Positions 1,858 through 37,722 of a stretch of 64,000 nt of DNA are shown in pieces. The stretch's first letter is position 1. Each line of letters opens with the position of its first letter. The notes beneath the pieces were generated by a model, which saw only the letters and a list, made by a program, of their open reading frames with translations, did no database searches and had not been told where the DNA came from. Location: assembly GCA_964344725.1 (NCBI GenBank), contig CAYFOI010000001.1:61762-125761 (forward strand), written 5' to 3'. A program made the translations under genes and the position numbers. The DNA comes from an uncultured Candidatus Peribacteria bacterium. Lineage in GTDB: Bacteria > Patescibacteriota > Gracilibacteria > UBA1369 > UBA12470.

Positions 1858-3072
1858 GTTCCCTACATCAGTAAGATTCATAATAGGCTGCATCACAGCA
1901 GCTACAAGACCTCCAACACCGACACCCATGATAACTAAGATAACAGGCTCAAGCATCTTGCTGAGACCGCTAATCATATCATCCACTTGCTCCTCATAGT
2001 AATCGGCAATTTTCTCAGCAACTTCATCGACTTTTGCAGTCTGTTCACCGATAGTAATCATCGATACAACCATATCTGGGAAAAGAAATTTAGAATCATT
2101 CAAGTTTTCACCAAGAGGAATACCTTGTGCCACATCTTCTGCAGCCATCAAAATTCTCTTTTTATAAACCTCATTCCCAACAGCACTAGCATTAATCTCC
2201 AAAGCTCTAACAATCGCAATCCCACTCCTCATAAGACTAGAAAGGTTCCTAGCGAAACGTGCAATAGCAAGTTTTCTCAGCATCTCTCCGAAAATCGGCA
2301 AATTAAGGAGTAATCTATGGATTTGATATCTACCAGTTTTAGTTTGTTTAAATAGCCAAAATCCAAGTCCCAGAATTGCAGCGACAATAATTACCTCCAC
2401 ATAAGAATGTTGTGCAATATCGCTCATTGCCATGAGAGTTTTTGTTGAGGTCGGGAGCTCTGTGCCAGATTCTTCAAAAATCCCAGAAATTTTTGGTACG
2501 ACCACAACAAGCATCACAATCAAAGCAGCAATCATGATGCAGATAACTGCAACCGGATAAATCATAGCGCCTTTCACTTTGCTCATAAGGCTAGCGCTTT
2601 TCTGGGTTTGATCGGCAATTTGTCTAAGTACGTCATTTAGCTTACCTGTAGCTTCACCGCTTCTCACCATGCCAACTTCAGCTTCTGGGAAAACTTTTGG
2701 GAAATTACCCATTGCTTCAGAAAGCTTCATGCCTTTTTCAACTTTCTTGGCCATATCTCTAATTATGAGCTTAAGTTTCACGTTTTTAGCCTGATCACTA
2801 AGAACATATAAAGCCCTTATTAAAGGGACTCCAGCATTAATCATAACAGCGAGAAGTTCAAAAAAAGTAACTTTATCCGCAATCTTAATCTTGCTCATAG
2901 ACTGCAAATACATGTTGAACTTATTGTAAAAGTCCACAATAACATTGCCACTAGACGGGACAAAATCATCATCCTGAAGAGGAGCAGCTTCGTTTAAAGC
3001 CTTAAGCCTAGCTTCATCTTCTTCGCTAAGACCTATATCTACTCTGACTTCTTGTTCTGCTTTCTCAGCCAT
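1849..3072 (-). CDS. pilC: type IV pilus / T2SS platform protein (GspF/PilC family)
   Basis: About 400 aa with two repeated GspF-type segments (AGVPLIRALYVL..., SGIAIVRALEI...) and hydrophobic TM segments. It lies immediately downstream of the PilB-type ATPase. Confidence 0.85.
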   Translation of the reverse strand: MAEKAEQEVRVDIGLSEEDEARLKALNEAAPLQDDDFVPSSGNVIVDFYNKFNMYLQSMSKIKIADKVTFFELLAVMINAGVPLIRALYVLSDQAKNVKLKLIIRDMAKKVEKGMKLSEAMGNFPKVFPEAEVGMVRSGEATGKLNDVLRQIADQTQKSASLMSKVKGAMIYPVAVICIMIAALIVMLVVVVPKISGIFEESGTELPTSTKTLMAMSDIAQHSYVEVIIVAAILGLGFWLFKQTKTGRYQIHRLLLNLPIFGEMLRKLAIARFARNLSSLMRSGIAIVRALEINASAVGNEVYKKRILMAAEDVAQGIPLGENLNDSKFLFPDMVVSMITIGEQTAKVDEVAEKIADYYEEQVDDMISGLSKMLEPVILVIMGVGVGGLVAAVMQPIMNLTDVGNAL

Positions 3073-3085
3073 CTATTAAAAAGGA

Positions 3086-4459
3086 TTAAGATTCTTGTGT
3101 TGGTGCTACCTCACTTGGTACTACCTCACTAACATTAACCTCTGCGTCGACCTTCTCCTCAACCTCCACTTCAGACTCTTCACTACTTGGCACTACCTCA
3201 CTATCATCAAGATCCTCAGTATGCCTCGCAACTCTATAAACCTCCTCAAGAGTAGTCATACCTTCAAGAGCTTTAATAACACCAGCTTGTTCAAGAGTAA
3301 CCATGCCTGCAGAATTTTTAGCAGAAGCTTCGATATCCATACTTGATGCTTTTTTCAAAATCAGTCTTCGAAGCTCATTATTCATATGAAGAACCTCATA
3401 AAGACCAACTCGTCCTTGATAACCAGAATTATCACACTTCTCACAACCTTTGCCTTGATAGAATTTTAAACCTTTTATAAGTTCCTGATCCACGTCTGCA
3501 TTTTGAGGTAAATTCCCAAGAGCTGCCTTTACAAGTTCCATAGTACTATCTTGTACCTGCATCTCCTCTTTGCAATGTTCACAAACTCTTCGTACAAGCC
3601 TTTGAGCAATAATTGTATTAATAGTAGAAGTCATCAAGAAAGGCGGAACACCCATATTGTCGATACGAGTCAAAGTCTCAACAGCACTATTCGTATGGAT
3701 TGTAGAAAGCACCAAATGACCTGTTAATGAGGCTTCGATCGCAACATCAATCGTCTCGCGATCACGAATCTCACCTACCATTATAATATCCGGATCCTGA
3801 CGCAAAGCAGTTCTAAGTCCGAACGCAAAAGTATAATCAATATCAGGATGTACTTGACTCTGATTAAGTCCATTCATCTGGATTTCCACAGGATCTTCAA
3901 TTGTAAGGATATTGACTTCGGGTTTGTTTAGCCTACTTAAAGCCGAATACAAAGTCGTTGTCTTACCTGAGCCAGTAGGCCCTGTAGTAAGAATAATCCC
4001 GTTAGGCATGCCAAGACTTTCCTCGATAAATTTAAGTGCAGATCCTCCAATACCAAGCTCAGGCAAATCCGGGATTTCACGTGATTGATCTTGAAGACGC
4101 ATTACAACTTTTTCACCATTTACAGTTGGAAGAGTAGAAACACGAAGATCCATCTCACGCCCATCAGGGGTAGTAACTTGACTCCGTCCATCTTGAGGAA
4201 TTCTTTGCTCATCAATCTTAAGATTCGACATAATCTTAATACGCGATACTACAGCAGGATGAATATTAGGTGGATATTCAACAATACGCCTAAGAACACC
4301 ATCGACTCTGAATCGAATACGTACAAGATTTTCCTCCGGCTCGATATGCACATCACTTGCACGACTATTTATAGCGTGAGAAAGCGAAGTCAAAACAAGT
4401 TGCGGAATGTTTCCCGCAATTATTGAGTCCTGTAATTCTTTAAGTTTGTCTTGAGTCAT
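3086..4459 (-). CDS. pilB: type IV pilus assembly ATPase (GspE/PilB family), short form with acidic C-terminal tail
   Basis: Walker A GPTGSGKTTT, His-box region LVLSTIHTNSA, tetracysteine CEHC...CEKC. There is no long N-terminal GSPII domain. The last ~45 aa are an E/S/V-rich tail. Confidence 0.85.
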   Translation of the reverse strand: MTQDKLKELQDSIIAGNIPQLVLTSLSHAINSRASDVHIEPEENLVRIRFRVDGVLRRIVEYPPNIHPAVVSRIKIMSNLKIDEQRIPQDGRSQVTTPDGREMDLRVSTLPTVNGEKVVMRLQDQSREIPDLPELGIGGSALKFIEESLGMPNGIILTTGPTGSGKTTTLYSALSRLNKPEVNILTIEDPVEIQMNGLNQSQVHPDIDYTFAFGLRTALRQDPDIIMVGEIRDRETIDVAIEASLTGHLVLSTIHTNSAVETLTRIDNMGVPPFLMTSTINTIIAQRLVRRVCEHCKEEMQVQDSTMELVKAALGNLPQNADVDQELIKGLKFYQGKGCEKCDNSGYQGRVGLYEVLHMNNELRRLILKKASSMDIEASAKNSAGMVTLEQAGVIKALEGMTTLEEVYRVARHTEDLDDSEVVPSSEESEVEVEEKVDAEVNVSEVVPSEVAPTQES

Positions 4460-28806: not shown

Positions 28807-30189
28807 ATGAAATTCACATCTTACGGAGCAGCGCGCGAAGTCACTGGTTCAAAGCACCTCATCCAATTAGGGGACAAAAAAGTCCTATTTGATTGTGGAA
28901 TGTTCCACGGTCGCAGGAAGGAAGCGAATCAAAAAAACCGAGAATTCGCATTTAATCCATCAGAAATAGATGCGGTTGTTCTTTCACATGCGCACATTGA
29001 TCACAGCGGAAGCCTTCCGAACCTGGCAAAACAAGGATTTCAAGGTCCGATCTACTGTACTCCAGCAACTCGAGATCTATGCCAACACATGCTACGCGAT
29101 AGTGCATACATCCAAGAACGTGAAGCAGAATATATAAACGAAAAACACCGCAAAAAAGGAGAAGAACTCATTGAGCCGATCTATACACAAGAAGACGCAG
29201 AACTAGCTCTTCAATACTTTAGATCACAAAAATACGGCGAAACTTTTGAGCCAGTAGAAGGGATGAAAGTAACTTTTCGCGAAGCTGGCCATATCCTTGG
29301 TGCAGCAATAGTAGAAATAGAAGCAGAGGGTAAAAAAATAGTTTTCACAGGAGATCTAGGACGAAAAGACTTACCTGTTTTAAAAGATCCATACCTTCCA
29401 GCACAAGCAGATATCTTGATTACCGAAGCAACTTACGGTAATCGCCTGCACGAATCTGTAGTCGAAGCTGAAGAGAAACTAGGAGACATCATAAATCGTA
29501 CAATCAAAAAAGGAGGAAAAGTAATCATCCCCGCGTTTGCACTAGGAAGAACACAGGAAGTTGTATACGCAATCCACAAATTAGTACAAGAAGGTAGGGT
29601 TAGCGCAGATTTGCCAGTTTATGTAGACAGTCCACTCGCAGTCAACGTTACAGACGTATTTAGGCAGCACAAAGAGTGTTATGACACAGAAGCAAAAGAA
29701 CTTTTTACAGACAGAGAAGAAGACGCATTCGGATTTTCACGTCTCAAGTACATAACAAAAGTCGAAGAATCTAAAGCTCTCAACCATCACGTTGGGCCAT
29801 GCATAATTATCTCGGCATCTGGGATGTGTGAGTTCGGACGAATAACACATCACCTCAAGAATAATGTCGAAGACCACAAGAACACAGTTCTCATAGTCGG
29901 ATACATGGCCGAAAATACTTTGGGAAGAAAACTCCTAGAAAAACAGAAAGAAGTCAAAATCTTCGGGAAACCTTATCAAGTCCACGCAGAAGTTGAGGTA
30001 ATTGATTCATATTCAGCACATGCAGACCGTTCAGACCTTCTTAATTTCGCAACACACTTAGAAGGACTTAAAAAAATCTTTATAGTTCACGGCGAGGAAA
30101 CAGCACAAATGGACTACAAAGAAGCTCTTAAACAGAACGGATTCACTGATATACAGATCCCAAAGCAGGGGGAAGAATTTGAGATATAA
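28807..30189 (+). CDS. MBL-fold beta-CASP ribonuclease (CPSF-73/RNase J-like)
   Basis: HAHIDHSG, EATYG and later His/Asp motifs. ~460 aa, typical of COG1236-type RNA-processing exonucleases. Confidence 0.75.
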   Translation: MKFTSYGAAREVTGSKHLIQLGDKKVLFDCGMFHGRRKEANQKNREFAFNPSEIDAVVLSHAHIDHSGSLPNLAKQGFQGPIYCTPATRDLCQHMLRDSAYIQEREAEYINEKHRKKGEELIEPIYTQEDAELALQYFRSQKYGETFEPVEGMKVTFREAGHILGAAIVEIEAEGKKIVFTGDLGRKDLPVLKDPYLPAQADILITEATYGNRLHESVVEAEEKLGDIINRTIKKGGKVIIPAFALGRTQEVVYAIHKLVQEGRVSADLPVYVDSPLAVNVTDVFRQHKECYDTEAKELFTDREEDAFGFSRLKYITKVEESKALNHHVGPCIIISASGMCEFGRITHHLKNNVEDHKNTVLIVGYMAENTLGRKLLEKQKEVKIFGKPYQVHAEVEVIDSYSAHADRSDLLNFATHLEGLKKIFIVHGEETAQMDYKEALKQNGFTDIQIPKQGEEFEI

Positions 30190-31806: not shown

Positions 31807-33648
31807 ATGAACCACCAGAAATTCTACAAACTTAGATGCGTACAATGTAAGAAAGAAACTGCCGAAGAAAAAACAGCGACGGTTTGCCCAAGTTGCGGAG
31901 GTGCTTTGGATGTGGAATACGATTACGAGTACATCAAATCAAAGATGAATTTCTATTCGCTTAGGAACGCTCCGATATCGGCTAGGAAGTATCTTGGGTT
32001 TTATCCTCTGAACAACCTGAATCTGCTGGTTACGCTGAGTGAGGGCGGAACTCCCCTGAGAAACGCCCACAAACTCGGCAAGAAACTAGGACTGAAAAAT
32101 CTGTATATAAAAAATGAAGGCGCCAACCCCACGGGCGTCTTCAAAGATAGAGGGTCACTTGTAGAGCTTACAAAAGCTCGTGAACTTGGCGCAAAAGCTG
32201 TTTGCTGTGCATCAACAGGTAATATGGCAGCATCTGTTTCCGCTTATGCTGCAGCCTCAAATATGCCATGCTATGTGTTGGTGCCAGAAGGAACGCCAAT
32301 TGGCAAGTTGGCTCAGAGTCTGATTTACGGAGCTCGTATCCTCCAAATCCGTGGAACTTATGCAGACTGTTGTAGGCTTTGTGAGGAGATGGCGAAAAAG
32401 CACAACTTCTATCTTGCTGGAGACTATGTTTTCCGCGCAGAGGGACAGAAGTCTTGTGCTTATGAAATAATTGAACAGCTTTTTTGGAAAGTACCTGATG
32501 CGGTAATTGTGCCGATGGGTTGTGGTACAAACATTTCGGCTATTTGGAAAGGATTTAAAGATCTAAAAGCACTCGGCTTTATAAGAAAAATGCCAAAAAT
32601 GATAGGTGTACAACCTGAAAAAGTACCAACCATCGTTGATGCTTTTAGAAATAATAAAAAGAGATATACGAGAGTCGACAAACCATCTTCAGTAGCATCG
32701 GCGGTTGGAATTGGAGAACCGCTCGATGACATAAAAGCATTACGCACACTGCGCGAATCGGACGGCTGGGCAGAATCAGCAGAAGAAATGGAAATATTAC
32801 AGGCAGAAAAAGACATGGCCCACGAAGAGTCGATATTCGTCGAGCCAAGTGCAGCTTTGCCAGTCGCTTGTTTGAAAAAACTCCTCAAAAAGAAAGTAAT
32901 TAAGGAAAATGACGTTGTCGTATGTATTGCAACAGGCTTAGGACTGAAAGATCCGAAGTCAGCAACAGCAATTATGCCGGATCCACCGGTTTTAGAGCCG
33001 ACAAATGATGACATAGACAGATATCTAAAACACAAAATCTACGAAATTCGTGCAGCCTCAGTCGCAGGACGTGAAAATATGCTTTGGACAAAGATCCCAA
33101 CCAAAGAACAACTCAAGAAAATCGTAAAAAAAGAGTTCAATTTGACCCTGTCCAAAGGACATTTAGAAGAAGCTATCAGGCAAGTTAAGCTTTTCCACGA
33201 AAAAACAGAAAAAATGCGCCAAGCAGACTTGCAGTACATTGTTGAAAACGTCCTTAAGAACTTCACCGACAAGAAAAAAGTCCTAGAAGTTAAAGATTAC
33301 AAACTTGACGTAACTCGCCACGAAAAACCACGTGCAGAAGTAGAAGTCCTATACTTCGGCGAAACAATCCGTGTCGCAGCAAAAGGTGCGGGTCCAGTCG
33401 ACGCTATAATCAAAGCTGCCCGCAAAGCCATAGAAGGGAAGGATAAGCTAGAATGCTGGCTCACATCTTACAATGTAGAGATAAGCACCCAAGGTACAGA
33501 CGCCGTCGTAGAAGTTCAAATGGGTGTGAAATCAAAAGATGGAACAGAAGTCCTAGTCTCAGCAACATCACCTGATATAATCGTGGCATCAATTGATTGC
33601 TTCGAAAAAGGTTACAATAATTTATTCTATAAATCGAATGGCAAATGA
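31807..33648 (+). CDS. threonine-synthase-family PLP enzyme with N-terminal zinc ribbon and C-terminal LeuA/CimA-type (LeuA_dimer-like) regulatory domain
   Basis: CVQC...CPSC ribbon; NEGANPTGVFKDRG PLP-lysine motif; CASTGNMAAS. The C-terminal ~140 aa carry AAKGAGPVDAIIKAARKAI and SPDIIVASIDCFEKGYNNL, as in IPMS/citramalate synthase regulatory domains. Confidence 0.7.
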   Translation: MNHQKFYKLRCVQCKKETAEEKTATVCPSCGGALDVEYDYEYIKSKMNFYSLRNAPISARKYLGFYPLNNLNLLVTLSEGGTPLRNAHKLGKKLGLKNLYIKNEGANPTGVFKDRGSLVELTKARELGAKAVCCASTGNMAASVSAYAAASNMPCYVLVPEGTPIGKLAQSLIYGARILQIRGTYADCCRLCEEMAKKHNFYLAGDYVFRAEGQKSCAYEIIEQLFWKVPDAVIVPMGCGTNISAIWKGFKDLKALGFIRKMPKMIGVQPEKVPTIVDAFRNNKKRYTRVDKPSSVASAVGIGEPLDDIKALRTLRESDGWAESAEEMEILQAEKDMAHEESIFVEPSAALPVACLKKLLKKKVIKENDVVVCIATGLGLKDPKSATAIMPDPPVLEPTNDDIDRYLKHKIYEIRAASVAGRENMLWTKIPTKEQLKKIVKKEFNLTLSKGHLEEAIRQVKLFHEKTEKMRQADLQYIVENVLKNFTDKKKVLEVKDYKLDVTRHEKPRAEVEVLYFGETIRVAAKGAGPVDAIIKAARKAIEGKDKLECWLTSYNVEISTQGTDAVVEVQMGVKSKDGTEVLVSATSPDIIVASIDCFEKGYNNLFYKSNGK

Positions 33649-35339
33649 AATCTGATAATTTTAGTGAACAACAGCTGGGAGGGGGAGCTCGTGAGGGGGA
33701 ACCTAAGGTGCCCACTCACGAATTAAGATCTGATATTTTAAAAAAAGACGTTGCAACAATCCCACACCGCGCGCTCTTGCGAGCATGCGGCGTTACAGAG
33801 GATGACTTCAAAAAACCTTTCATCGGAGTCGCAAACTCATATAACGACGTAGTGCCAGGACACATACATCTGAACGAATTAACAGAGGAAGTTAAGCGCG
33901 GAATCCGCGATGCTGGAGGCGTCCCATTTGCTTGGGGAGTGCCTGGAGTTTGTGACGGGATAGCGATGTATGCGGAAATGCGTTTATCTCTTCCATCTCG
34001 AGAACATATTGCTGACAACATCGAGATCATGATGCTTTCTCATTCGTTTGATGGATGGGTCGGAGTCACTAATTGCGACAAAATTACGCCAGGAATGCTC
34101 ATGGCAGCAGGTCGTTTAGACTTGCCAGCAATGCTGATAACAGGCGGCCCTATGAAAAGAGCGGAAAGTGATGGTGAAAAAGTTCATCCAATCCAAGGAT
34201 TCGGATACGCAGGACAAGTTAAAGCCGGCAAAATGAGCCTCGAAGAAGCTGAAAAGAAACTCCAAATCTGCTCAAAATGTGGAGCCGGCTCTTGCGTTGG
34301 TCTATACACAGCAAACACAATGGCTTGTGTGACCGAAACACTCGGTATGTCCGTCACGAAATGTGCAACGACATGGGCTCTTTCAGAAGAAAAAAAGAAT
34401 CAGGCTTACGAAACAGGTCGTCGCATAGTTGAGTTGGTACAGCAAGACATGAAACCGTCTCAAATTATGACGAAAGAATCTTTTGAAAACGCAGTCAGGG
34501 TAGATATGACAATGGGAGGATCCACAAACGCAGTTCTTCATATCCCAGCGATCGCAAAAGAACTCGGTATCGAGATTGGCAACGACGATTTCGATAGGAT
34601 AGCTCGTGAAACCCCGAACATCTGCAAGCTTATTCCGGCCTCGGACAAATATGAAATGATCGATCTTGATAGGGCAGGCGGAATCCCCGCAGTTTTGAGT
34701 CGGATAAAAGATATGATTAATGATGGACAGACTGTGAACGGACGAACCATTATGGAAATCGCATCTTCAGCTGAAATTCTAGACGATGATGTTGTGAGAC
34801 CACTAGACAATCCTTACTTCGAACAAGGTGGAATAGCCGTTTTGAAAGGCAACATCGCGGAAGGATCTGTAATCAAACAAACAGCAGTCGTAGAAGACAT
34901 GATGGAGCACTCAGGTCCGGCAAAAGTTTTCACTTCAGAAGAAGATTTACTTGTAGCAATTGAGAAGAAAGAGATCGAAGAAGGCGACGTAGTTGTAATG
35001 CAATATATGGGACCGGCTGGAGCACCTGGAATGCCGGAAATGCTTACTCCGACAGACGCGATCAAAGGCGCAGGTTACAAAAAAGTCGCACTAATAACAG
35101 ATGGCAGATTTTCAGGAGGAACCGTAGGTCCATGCATAGCTCATATCGAACCAGAAGCATTTAACGGTGGACCAATTGCAGCAATCCGAGATGGTGACAT
35201 CATAGAAATCAGCGTCCCAAATCGTACACTCAATGTGAAACTCTCAGACGAAGAAATCGCAGAACGTCTCAAAACCGCACAAGCACCAGAAAGAAAAATG
35301 ACATCAGTCCTTGAAAGATATCGTGACATGTATTCATAA
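33645..35339 (+). CDS. ilvD: dihydroxy-acid dehydratase
   Basis: PHRALLRACGV, CDGIAM, CDKITPGMLMAA, TDGRFSGGT. The ATG overlaps the upstream stop (ATGA). Homology begins near codon 24, and an in-frame GTG at 33708 is an alternative start. Confidence 0.9.
   Translation: MKSDNFSEQQLGGGAREGEPKVPTHELRSDILKKDVATIPHRALLRACGVTEDDFKKPFIGVANSYNDVVPGHIHLNELTEEVKRGIRDAGGVPFAWGVPGVCDGIAMYAEMRLSLPSREHIADNIEIMMLSHSFDGWVGVTNCDKITPGMLMAAGRLDLPAMLITGGPMKRAESDGEKVHPIQGFGYAGQVKAGKMSLEEAEKKLQICSKCGAGSCVGLYTANTMACVTETLGMSVTKCATTWALSEEKKNQAYETGRRIVELVQQDMKPSQIMTKESFENAVRVDMTMGGSTNAVLHIPAIAKELGIEIGNDDFDRIARETPNICKLIPASDKYEMIDLDRAGGIPAVLSRIKDMINDGQTVNGRTIMEIASSAEILDDDVVRPLDNPYFEQGGIAVLKGNIAEGSVIKQTAVVEDMMEHSGPAKVFTSEEDLLVAIEKKEIEEGDVVVMQYMGPAGAPGMPEMLTPTDAIKGAGYKKVALITDGRFSGGTVGPCIAHIEPEAFNGGPIAAIRDGDIIEISVPNRTLNVKLSDEEIAERLKTAQAPERKMTSVLERYRDMYS
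33654..33720 (+). repeat. 67-nt G-rich hairpin module, copy 1 (inside annotated ilvD 5' end)
   Basis: 61/67 identical to 35447-35513 by manual alignment. Stems CGTGAG/CTCACG and GGGAACC/GGTGCCC. Confidence 0.9.
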
Positions 35340-37183
35340 TGACAAAGAATATTAAAAAAGGTGAATTAAAATTATACGAGCGCACGTCGAAACAAAAGAG
35401 ACGGGTCTCGTGGGTCCCGGCTCGCCTTGTTTCTAAGTTTAGTGAGGATGATTTTAATGAACAACAGCTGGGAGGGGGAGCCCGCGAGGGGGAACCTAAG
35501 GTACCCACTCGCGACAACTTAACAGGGTCGGATATAATAATGAAAAGCCTTATTAAAGAGGGAACAAAAGTCATATTCGGATATCCAGGAGGCGCGCTGA
35601 TCCCAATTTATGATGCAATGACCAACTATCCAGAGCTCAGGCATATCCTTGTAAGACACGAACAAGGCGCAGCTCTCGCCGCAGACGGATACGCTAGATC
35701 AACCGGCGAAGTTGGGGTTTGCCTAGGGACGTCAGGTCCAGGCGCAACCAACCTAGTCACGGGTATTGCAAACGCATACATGGACTCGGTCCCAATGGTT
35801 GCGATAACAGGACAGGTTAACAAAGGAATGCTAGGTAGCGACGCTTTCCAAGAAGTCGATATTACAGGAATTACGCTCCCGATTACGAAACACAATTATC
35901 TTGTCGACAATACAGAGGATCTCCCGATGATTATTAAGGAAGCTTTTTATATAGCAAAAAGCGGTCGCCCGGGTCCTGTGCATATCGATATTCCAGTCGA
36001 TCTTTGTAAAAAATCTTTAGACAGCTTTGAATATCCAGAAAAAATAGAAATCCCAGGCTTCGAAATCCCAGGTAAAGCGGACGAAGAAGCTGTGAAGAGA
36101 GCGGTAGAACTGATCCAAGAGTCAAAAAAACCGGTAATAATCTGTGGACATGGAGTTCCGATTTCAGGAGCATCCAAAGAGCTCACAGAACTTGCAGAAA
36201 GAAGCCACATTCCAGTAGTTCACACAATCCTCGGCAAAGGATCTTTCCCAGAAAGCAGTCCATTGTCATTCGGAATGCTAGGAATGCATGGTATGGCTTA
36301 TGCGAACTTCGCAGTTCATCACTCAGACTTAATAATCAATGTCGGATCACGTTTTGACGATAGAATTACAGGCAGCTTAGACGCTTTCGCAAAAGGAGCG
36401 AAGGTGATTCATGTCGATATCGACGCATCCGAGATCAACAAAAACGTTCCAGCATACTTGCCAGTAGTCGGTGACGCAAAAAAAGTCCTCAAGCAAATTC
36501 TCGAAATCCTGCCACACAAAAAACACCCAGATTGGCTTGATGAAATCGACGGATGGACTAAGAATTACCCACTCGCAGGCAAGGAAACAGAGATGCTCAC
36601 AGTTCCAAAAGTCCTTGTAAAACTGCACGAAGCAACAAAGGGTGATGCTCTTATAGTAACAGATGTAGGACAGCACCAAATGTGGTCAGCCCAATACTAT
36701 CCCCAAGACAAACCAAATAAATTCCACACATCAGGAGGTCTTGGCGCAATGGGATACGGACTCCCTGCAGCAATTGGAGCCCGTGTCGCAGATCCTGACG
36801 AAGAAATTTGGCTAATCAGCGGCGATGGAAGCTTCCAAATGAACATTCAGGAGCTTATGACAATTGTTCAGGAAAACATCGATATAAAGATCGCAATAAT
36901 GAACAATGGATTCCTTGGCATGGTCCGCCAATGGCAAGAAATGTTTTACGACAAAAACTACTCAGGCACACCGATAACAAGTCCAGATTACCAACTAATC
37001 GCAGAAGGCTACGGACTAAAACACTTAAGAGCTCGCACGGAGCAGGAGGCAGAAGACGTTATAAAAGCGGCTCGCGATCTCAAAGGTACGGTAATATGCG
37101 AATTTATAATAGAGCCAGAAGACAACGTATTTCCAATGGTCGCACCAGGCAAAGGACTAAAAGACACGTTGATTGGGAAATAG
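35339..37183 (+). CDS. ilvB: acetolactate synthase (AHAS) large subunit
   Basis: FGYPGGALIPIYDA, GLGAMGYGLPAAIGA, GDGSFQMN. The ATG overlaps the ilvD stop (TAATG). Homology starts near codon 62, and ATG 35540 is an alternative start. Confidence 0.9.
   Translation: MTKNIKKGELKLYERTSKQKRRVSWVPARLVSKFSEDDFNEQQLGGGAREGEPKVPTRDNLTGSDIIMKSLIKEGTKVIFGYPGGALIPIYDAMTNYPELRHILVRHEQGAALAADGYARSTGEVGVCLGTSGPGATNLVTGIANAYMDSVPMVAITGQVNKGMLGSDAFQEVDITGITLPITKHNYLVDNTEDLPMIIKEAFYIAKSGRPGPVHIDIPVDLCKKSLDSFEYPEKIEIPGFEIPGKADEEAVKRAVELIQESKKPVIICGHGVPISGASKELTELAERSHIPVVHTILGKGSFPESSPLSFGMLGMHGMAYANFAVHHSDLIINVGSRFDDRITGSLDAFAKGAKVIHVDIDASEINKNVPAYLPVVGDAKKVLKQILEILPHKKHPDWLDEIDGWTKNYPLAGKETEMLTVPKVLVKLHEATKGDALIVTDVGQHQMWSAQYYPQDKPNKFHTSGGLGAMGYGLPAAIGARVADPDEEIWLISGDGSFQMNIQELMTIVQENIDIKIAIMNNGFLGMVRQWQEMFYDKNYSGTPITSPDYQLIAEGYGLKHLRARTEQEAEDVIKAARDLKGTVICEFIIEPEDNVFPMVAPGKGLKDTLIGK
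35447..35513 (+). repeat. 67-nt G-rich hairpin module, copy 2 (inside annotated ilvB 5' end)
   Basis: See copy 1. The outer stem here is CGCGAG/CTCGCG. Confidence 0.9.
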
Positions 37184-37254
37184 TCAGTAGAAACTAACTT
37201 GCGCAAAGCGCTCCACTACTAAAATCCTCTAATCCTACAACCCTACAATCCTCC
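37181..37254. repeat. word array + GCGC-AAA-GCGC hairpin (37198-37214) + AATCCTNN 8-nt array between ilvB and ilvN
   Basis: TAGTCAGTAGAAACTAACTTGCGCAAAGCGCTCCACTACTAAAATCCTCTAATCCTACAACCCTACAATCCTCC, then ATG. Confidence 0.85.
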
Positions 37255-37722
37255 ATGAAAGCAGTCATCCAAATAATCTCAGAAGATCGTCCAGGCGTGC
37301 TCAATCGTGTCACAGCGCTACTACGTCGCAAACGCTTCAATATAATCGGAATCACAGCAGGACCTGTCCTCAGGCCGAACACATCCCGGTTTGCAATAAC
37401 GCTTGATGACACAGAAGAACGCATAGCAACGATCATGAAGCAAATCTACAAACTTGTAGAAGTAATAAGCGTAAAAAACATGGTTGCTGAGGGAGCTATA
37501 ATGCGCGAAATGCTACTTGCTGAATTTGAAAAAATGTACGAAATGCCCGAAGATATGAAAGAGTTCAAAGCAGAAATAATAGGTGAGGACGAGGGCCGTA
37601 CACTCGTAGAAGTAGTAGGATCTCCAGAAGAAATAGATAAATTTATAAATAAATTCCGCGACAAAGGCATGAACAGAATCGCACGAAGCGGAATCACATC
37701 ACTTAAATCACTAAAAACATGA
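37255..37722 (+). CDS. ilvN: acetolactate synthase small (regulatory) subunit
   Basis: ACT-domain start ISEDRPGVLNRVTALLRRKRFNI; ~155 aa; follows ilvB. Confidence 0.85.
   Translation: MKAVIQIISEDRPGVLNRVTALLRRKRFNIIGITAGPVLRPNTSRFAITLDDTEERIATIMKQIYKLVEVISVKNMVAEGAIMREMLLAEFEKMYEMPEDMKEFKAEIIGEDEGRTLVEVVGSPEEIDKFINKFRDKGMNRIARSGITSLKSLKT

Follow-up and report, generated by a model that had tools for sequence, protein, structure and literature searches.

An in-frame structured repeat element as the probable source of the peptide shared by IlvD and IlvB in a Candidatus Peribacteria bacterium

Here we analyzed a 64,000-nt stretch (the window; contig CAYFOI010000001.1, positions 61,762 to 125,761) from an uncultured Candidatus Peribacteria bacterium, in which the adjacent genes ilvD and ilvB encode nearly the same N-terminal peptide. 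The DNA module behind this peptide appears, with a probability of roughly 0.7, to be part of a ~170-nt, G+C-rich, structured and non-autonomous repeat element of Peregrinibacteria-like bacteria of the candidate phyla radiation (CPR). We are about as confident that the shared peptide is a read-through by-product of an element inserted in frame and not a purposeful tag. Five copies of the element were found in four genomes: in ilvD and ilvB of the window, in a dinB gene (locus L099), next to a tRNA gene (L101), and between ilvN and rid of the closest relative (L003).

Two copies of a module in the ilv operon

The operon runs in the order ThrC-like/LeuA_dimer fusion, ilvD, ilvB, ilvN, rid and ilvC, as assigned by profile search. 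A 52-nt core, GAACAACAGCTGGGAGGGGGAGCYCGYGAGGGGGAACCTAAGGTRCCCACTC, occurs at exactly two sites in the window, 33666-33717 and 35459-35510, both on the + strand, as are all copies, repeats, start codons and target sites of the window given below. Shuffled sequence gave no matches to this core. Extended to 69 nt, the two module copies (33654-33722 and 35447-35515) lie 1.8 kb apart and differ at seven positions (62/69, 90% identical). Both are in the frame of their host open reading frames (ORFs), ilvD (33645-35339) and ilvB (35339-37183), and encode nearly the same 23 residues, D(N/D)F(S/N)EQQLGGGAREGEPKVPT(H/R), as an earlier note on this DNA had described. In the 564-aa product of ilvD the IlvD profiles begin at about residue 25, and in the 614-aa product of ilvB the profiles of the acetohydroxyacid synthase (AHAS) family begin at residue 59-62. 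The non-homologous ilvB extension had been put at about 60 codons; it is present, with a net insertion of 55 codons (165 nt), and that of ilvD is 26 codons (78 nt). The sequence here is identical in two independent metagenome assemblies of the same organism (L001 and L002), including a GTA codon at 35501 of the ilvB copy, which is thus not an assembly error. An alternative genetic code (code 25 of Gracilibacteria) was considered and rejected, as ORF lengths are normal with table 11.

Judged by comparison with orthologous loci, the ilvD and ilvB segments are insertions specific to this organism, because none of the examined orthologs has the module and all begin at the conserved N-terminus. Closest to IlvB are its relatives P0002 (87% identity) and P0003 and P0004 (72%), with all others at 60% or below. 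In the closest relative, L003 (IlvB 87% and IlvD 84% identical to the window proteins), ilvB begins MKNTNLTGSD with an ATGA overlap with the ilvD stop, so that the same stop/start overlap is found at its empty site, and ilvD begins MRSDILKKD. The corresponding starts are MQNKLTGAH and MQSRILKSD in L004, and MTTLTGAH and MYHLKSD in L005-L010. Scans with IlvD gave 88 further loci, which place the lineage in the Peregrinibacteria/Peribacteria of the CPR. Across about 45 related loci, the IlvD start is M(R/K)SD-like in all, and IlvB starts one to five residues before TG(A/S) wherever ilvB is present. Neither blastn nor the covariance model described below detected the module in the related loci outside contigs of the same organism. 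Several loci in this set (L012-L017, L021, L025, L028 and L032) encode an IlvD 65-74% identical to the CPR protein of the window, yet were deposited as Methanosarcinales, Nanoarchaeota or Micrarchaeota metagenome-assembled genomes, which is likely to reflect mis-binning or mislabelling.

Further copies define a repeat family

An exhaustive phmmer search with the 61-aa ilvB extension against 1.84 billion proteins returned a single match, P0121 (E = 9e-4). This protein is a DNA polymerase IV (DinB) from a Peregrinibacteria genome, with a 77-aa extension before the canonical ILHVDADAFF. Its DNA, the lexA-dinB locus L099, aligns with the entire ilvB insertion and not just with the module. Both contain an identical 19-mer, ACGGGTCTCGTGGGTCCCG (35401-35419 in the window), which encodes RVSWVP in the frame of ilvB and TGLVGP in that of the dinB host; the constraint is therefore on the nucleic acid and not on the peptide. 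The L099 insertion carries a perfect 15-nt direct repeat, TCGGGCTATTTTACA, on both sides, 201 nt apart, and excising the insert together with one repeat restores MEYNRIFRAILHVDADAFF, a normal DinB start. At three dinB loci of relatives (57-63% identity), the lexA-dinB spacers measure only 18-42 nt and the element is absent. The 5' end of the dinB insertion also holds a perfect 14-19 bp hairpin (L099:3970-4005; ACAATCTCGAAATTT / AAATTTCGAGATTGT), the stem of which reaches into the left direct repeat; this hairpin is not in the other element copies.

Based on these alignments, the ilvB extension is one near full-length copy of the element (35350-35515), and the ilvD copy is its 3' third (33654-33722). 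The two full copies (ilvB and dinB) were used to build a covariance model, which matched only the two known sites in the window. Within the ~0.7 Mb of related sequence searched, it identified a full-length intergenic copy at L101:2798-2970, ending 5 nt before a tRNA gene and scoring 83.5 bits (model R1) and 162.5 bits (R2). The tRNA gene (2971-3042) directly follows this copy, and RNase P processing of the tRNA would free the 3' end of the element; the L101 copy may be a source copy and not an inserted one. The fifth copy, L003:3838-3943 (region 3808-3946), contains the 5' half only and is placed after the ilvN stop and before the rid start, with a 22/23 direct repeat, ATCACATCACTTAAATCA(C/T)TAAC, on its two sides. 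The same site is empty in the window, where the ilvN/rid junction reads ATCACATCACTTAAATCACTAA (37690-37722). On either side of the ilvD insertion is a direct repeat with 13/16 positions identical, its two copies lying 78 nt (26 codons) apart. The left repeat copy, AAATCTGATAATTTTA (33648-33663), partly coincides with what remains of the helix P1 3' strand, and the right copy, AGATCTGATATTTTAA (33726-33741), corresponds to the native IlvD codons RSDIL.

The two window copies, 90% identical and only 1.8 kb apart, could by themselves be explained without a wider family, by a single local duplication or by gene conversion from one gene start of the operon to the other. Homologous copies with the same fold at unrelated sites in three other genomes (L099, L101 and L003) make this extremely improbable.

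Other searches extended the family no further. Scans of genome and metagenome contigs with an exact pattern for hairpin P3 gave no matches, though this pattern is too strict even for L099 or L101 and so says little about the family. The 19-mer had no matches in viral contigs, and one viral contig that matched a looser pattern (L107) was taken as a chance match, as the covariance model did not match it. A blastn search against plasmids and phages returned nothing. A word-indexed protein search with a 75-aa extension gave no candidate, and it also missed the window's own 614-aa protein and is thus uninformative. A Peregrinibacteria-like lexA-dinB locus (L106:3277-3500) has a different G+C-rich 5' extension of dinB, about 76 codons long, with three strong hairpins and an CGGTGCCG(A/G) direct repeat. 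We considered this extension (P0134) as a sixth copy and rejected it, since it matches neither covariance model and appears to be a different element; it may represent a second family of the same kind.

The element has a conserved RNA-like fold

The predicted architecture consists of a long-range helix, P1, which closes a long hairpin, P2, capped by the conserved 19-mer, and a purine-rich linker followed by hairpin P3. In the full-length ilvB copy, P1 pairs 35361-35375 with 35448-35462, the inner pairs join 35380-85 with 35437-43, and the outer stem of P2 joins 35389-95 with 35427-33. The linker (35463-35482) then leads into P3, in which 35483-35495 pairs with 35501-35513. The ilvD copy keeps the P1 3'-strand remnant, the conserved linker GAACAACAGCTGGGAGGGGGAGC, and P3 (33690-33702 with 33708-33720). 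An inverted repeat CGAGC/GCTCG, noticed earlier upstream of the second module copy, does exist, but its coordinates are 35378-82 and 35421-25, one base off from those first given, and it lies outside the conserved fold.

For the ilvB and dinB copies, RNAalifold predicted 44 pairs, of which seven are compensatory and none is broken. Over all five copies, 96.1% of cells can pair, against 33-47% in slid-partner controls, and 20 of the 44 pairs change on both sides, a level reached by 0 of 500 shuffles; the five-copy alignment was fitted to the model, so these counts lean toward structure. Independent minimum-energy folds of the three full copies gave the same architecture, with z-scores of -3.0, -6.0 and -6.5; stability favors the sense strand over the antisense strand by 9-12 kcal/mol. 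The four differences between the two cores are as the earlier note described, with three synonymous and one not, except that they are not four separate changes: the CGT/CGC and CAC/CGC differences belong to one and the same P3 pair, U-A in one copy and C-G in the other. The only non-synonymous core change (H/R) can thus be attributed to compensation at the RNA level, because its partner in P3 is the CGT/CGC difference. Rfam searches of the window copies, L099 and L101 at the gathering threshold and at E up to 10 returned only the tRNA above threshold and nothing credible otherwise. A terminator reading was rejected, as no T-run follows the hairpins.

Such a fold on the sense strand, supported by covariation and with conserved unpaired nucleotides, would also be expected of a cis-regulatory RNA (a riboswitch, attenuator or translational operator) controlling ilvD and ilvB, a role raised in the earlier note. 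The heptamer GAGGGGG occurs both in the linker and in the P3 5' arm, so that the two could alternately pair with the P3 3' arm. In L101, A-runs replace the G-runs in both places, matched by a U-run in the P3 3' arm, which is the pattern of mutually exclusive helices; these changes fit alternative pairing without proving it. Nevertheless, we consider ilv regulation improbable. The element is sporadic, being absent from the same sites in all relatives (about 45 ilvD/ilvB loci and three dinB loci), and its hosts are as unrelated as an SOS polymerase gene (dinB), a tRNA gene and the ilvN/rid junction. Moreover, truncated copies hold only the 5' or only the 3' part, flanking target duplications mark the copies as insertions, no Rfam family matches, and the element lies within the ORF, 3' of the start codon that is available. 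The element itself may still have some RNA-level activity apart from ilv regulation.

Probable translation through the element

No in-frame ATG, GTG or TTG is found between 35339 and 35540, leaving ATG 35339 and ATG 35540 as the only candidate starts of ilvB, as had been proposed. The ATG at 35339-35341 overlaps the ilvD stop codon TAA (35337-35339) in a TAATG and is the only canonical in-frame start 5' of the conserved N-terminus. The claim that a start at 35540 would cut conserved AHAS residues also held: it would remove the native IlvB N-terminal codons NLTGSDII (35516-35539), which are under purifying selection. Compared with L003, the NLTGSD codons carry five differences, all synonymous and none non-synonymous, and the RSDIL codons of ilvD behave likewise. 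Because all differences are synonymous, the NLTGSD codons must be translated, and the ilvB start is therefore upstream of 35516. For ilvD, the ATG at 33645-33647 overlaps the TGA (33646-33648) of the upstream thrC-like gene in an ATGA. It is probably the ancestral coupled start, since the encoded MKSD.. matches the M(K/R)SD.. start of orthologs.

An alternative is that the element brings its own ribosome-binding site and start codon, with its hosts starting inside P3 (GAGGGGGA, 7 nt, GTG) and so keeping a near-native N-terminus. An in-frame GTG is indeed located in P3 of the ilvD copy (33708-33710), exactly at the start position of IlvD orthologs. The dinB copy likewise has a GTG at the normal DinB start, and a purine run lies 7 nt upstream in both copies. 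The aligned codon of the ilvB copy, however, is the non-start codon GTA (35501-35503), in three assemblies, and in the L101 copy both the G-run and the GTG are missing. The site is also buried in a stable hairpin, and a Shine-Dalgarno (SD)-like tetramer within 25 nt of the start was found for only one of 32 long ORFs in the window, the leaders being A/C/T-rich and G-poor. A portable start of this kind is thus unlikely, and the GTG at 33708 is a possible but unlikely secondary start of ilvD. Many leaders (for example 37230-37254 and 33620-33644) carry short CTACAA, CCTACAA or CTAGTT-type repeats directly before the ATG, and similar repeats occur in relatives, at L003:1-31 ((CTACAAA)x4 before ilvD) and at L005:9975-10000 (before ilvB).

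Translation instead most likely starts at the coupled ATGs 33645 and 35339 and runs through the element, as the earlier note had suggested, because SD motifs are almost absent, the ilvB copy has GTA, and the ancestral stop/start overlap is kept as at the empty site of L003. Predicted tryptic peptides of such read-through include LVSKFSEDDFNEQQLGGGAR for IlvB and SDNFSEQQLGGGAR for IlvD. An AlphaFold2 prediction with 20 homologues gave residues 1-58 of IlvB a pLDDT of 25-29 and no secondary structure, with the confident AHAS core starting at residue 61; the extension lacks alignment depth, so this low confidence is weak evidence for disorder. In each ORF-embedded copy only one of the three frames is open, and the insertions measure 78, 165 and 201 nt. 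A single open frame is to be expected if only such insertions survive in essential genes, and is in part a matter of ascertainment, since these copies came to light by way of their ORFs.

Read-through of both copies, likely at least for ilvB, would give two enzymes of one pathway nearly the same 23 residues in frame, which would fit a functional N-terminal tag selected for targeting, co-localisation or regulated degradation, as had been put forward. We now regard this as very improbable. Alignment of about 45 related loci showed the peptide to be missing and the proteins to start at the conserved position, even in the ortholog with 87% identity, and among 1.84 billion proteins the peptide was found elsewhere only on the one DinB. 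The same element occurs in dinB and at two non-coding sites, beside a tRNA gene and in an intergenic junction, and it is not tied to one frame: the dinB host uses another frame for the upstream half of the ilvB extension. In addition, the one non-synonymous core change compensates an RNA pair, and the extension is predicted to be disordered.

Probable mobility and comparison with known elements

From its distribution and flanks, we infer that the element is a non-autonomous mobile element. This is because its presence is sporadic, the same site can be filled or empty in close relatives, copies are flanked by duplications of 15, ~16 and 23 nt, and some copies are truncated. The lack of terminal inverted repeats and the sense orientation of all five copies relative to the surrounding genes also lead to this view. 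Its insertions are in sense orientation at gene boundaries, and in the window they lie a few codons downstream of the native coupled ATGs of ilvB and ilvD. Three features make these insertions tolerable: each adds a length divisible by three, the element has one open reading frame, and the insertion point precedes the folded enzyme core. Ribosomes from the old ATGs would then read through the element and append a disordered N-terminal tail of 26 residues to IlvD and 55 residues to IlvB. The left repeat at ilvD coincides with the internal P1 3' strand of the element, and a deletion between the left target duplication and this similar strand could explain the truncation of the ilvD copy.

Two routes of insertion can be envisaged, an RNA-mediated, target-primed insertion or a transposase acting in trans and making long staggered cuts. 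Both would fit because the duplications are long and variable, terminal inverted repeats are absent, insertion is sense-only, and one copy is 5'-truncated. The 3'-truncated L003 copy fits neither route simply. We also considered that CPR bacteria may have a new class of mobile element based on sense-strand RNA, in which a structured RNA is copied into transcribed gene boundaries by retroposition or by chemistry resembling reverse splicing, and which may self-process or switch through the linker and P3. The fold conserved by covariation, the conserved unpaired nucleotides and the sense-only orientation would agree with this, although at present we think it unlikely.

Among known systems, Rickettsia palindromic elements (RPEs) are the closest analogue, and the possibility of an in-frame palindromic insertion of this kind, also raised in the earlier note, matches the comparative data. 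RPEs are short structured repeats found in frame in unrelated ORFs and also at non-coding sites (PMC10969869). Both they and the present element are ~100-190 nt long, have a stable structure, occur in small genomes, and sit in frame in unrelated housekeeping ORFs, whose products gain a peptide. Two features of the RPE class are found here, namely occurrence at several unrelated loci and preservation of the host frame, with a peptide fusion predicted. The likeness is claimed as an analogy only, as the host is a CPR bacterium of another phylum; the element is probably unrelated to RPEs in sequence and no member of their family. In contrast to RPEs, copies of the present element are concentrated within ~12 codons of the gene start or at gene junctions, all in sense orientation, and have 15-23 nt flanking direct repeats and a fold conserved by covariation across genomes.

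Bacterial MITEs (miniature transposable elements with inverted repeats; Correia/NEMIS, ERIC, RUP, Nezha) are likewise small and repeated, do not code for their own mobility, and produce target duplications; they sometimes form in-frame ORF fusions and are transcribed in host mRNAs. Unlike them, the present element has no terminal inverted repeats, as inspected at ends defined by the direct repeats of L099 and L003, and its duplications are much longer and variable (15/15 at L099, 13/16 at ilvD, 22/23 at L003, none clear at ilvB), with no parent insertion sequence (IS) known. Long duplications by a bacterial transposase have a precedent in the IS1202 group, whose transposases make target-site duplications of 16-28 bp (PMC10132070). 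Those elements, however, are 1.5 kb long, have inverted repeats of 24-26 bp and TGT...ACA ends, and encode a transposase; the present element shows none of these features.

In eukaryotes, SINE-like retroposition proceeds by target-primed reverse transcription and leaves variable flanking duplications. Retroposed small RNAs share with the present element these variable duplications, the lack of inverted repeats, a structured RNA-like body, and a 5'-truncated copy with an intact 3' end (ilvD). We know of no such system in bacteria. The element differs in having no A-tail and no linked reverse transcriptase, and its 3'-truncated L003 copy is not predicted by simple target-primed reverse transcription. 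Lastly, the riboswitches and leaders of ilv operons (the ilvB-OMG and ilvH motifs of Rfam) are also structured sense-strand RNAs 5' of branched-chain amino-acid genes. The element has no Rfam match at E up to 10, lies inside an ORF, is missing at orthologous sites, and is present at unrelated genes.

Several points weigh against the view that a mobile element inserted in frame and is read through. Only five copies in four genomes have been seen, and neither a transposase nor a reverse transcriptase is tied to the element. At ilvB no flanking duplication is clear beyond GACAA. The two copies embedded in ORFs were detected via open frames, so the in-frame pattern is partly ascertainment. Translation of the extension is read from sequence, and its predicted disorder adds little for the reason given above. 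Finally, the conserved unpaired stretches (GAGCGCA and GAACAACAG) and the parallel G-run to A-run change in L101 hint at RNA-level activity, which a purely selfish-DNA view would leave unexplained.

Neighboring genes

The first gene of the operon (31807-33648; also L005:6352-8202) encodes a PLP-dependent ThrC/IlvA-like domain fused to a LeuA_dimer domain, which in isopropylmalate synthase forms the regulatory C-terminal part, and this fusion is kept in relatives. It may be a feedback-regulated, threonine-utilising enzyme in place of IlvA. A beta-CASP/metallo-beta-lactamase nuclease is encoded at 28807-30189 and also adjoins the operon in L005. Its best NCBIfam match, "type VII CRISPR-associated Cas14", is far under the cutoff (440 vs 800 bits), and the product is probably an ordinary CPSF/RNase J-like nuclease.

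Significance

The insertion of such an element would explain why the annotated AHAS (614 aa) and IlvD (564 aa) oddly carry non-homologous N-termini, and is a caution against reading shared peptides as tags. CPR genomes are very small and generally regarded as poor in mobile DNA. A structured, RPE-like element inserted in frame is documented here in CPR bacteria, apparently for the first time, and its copies indicate how essential genes can tolerate 5' insertions in tightly packed operons with translational coupling. The covariance model can be used to map the family. Together, the long and variable duplications, the sense-only orientation and the covarying fold make the element a candidate for an unusual, possibly RNA-mediated mechanism of mobility.

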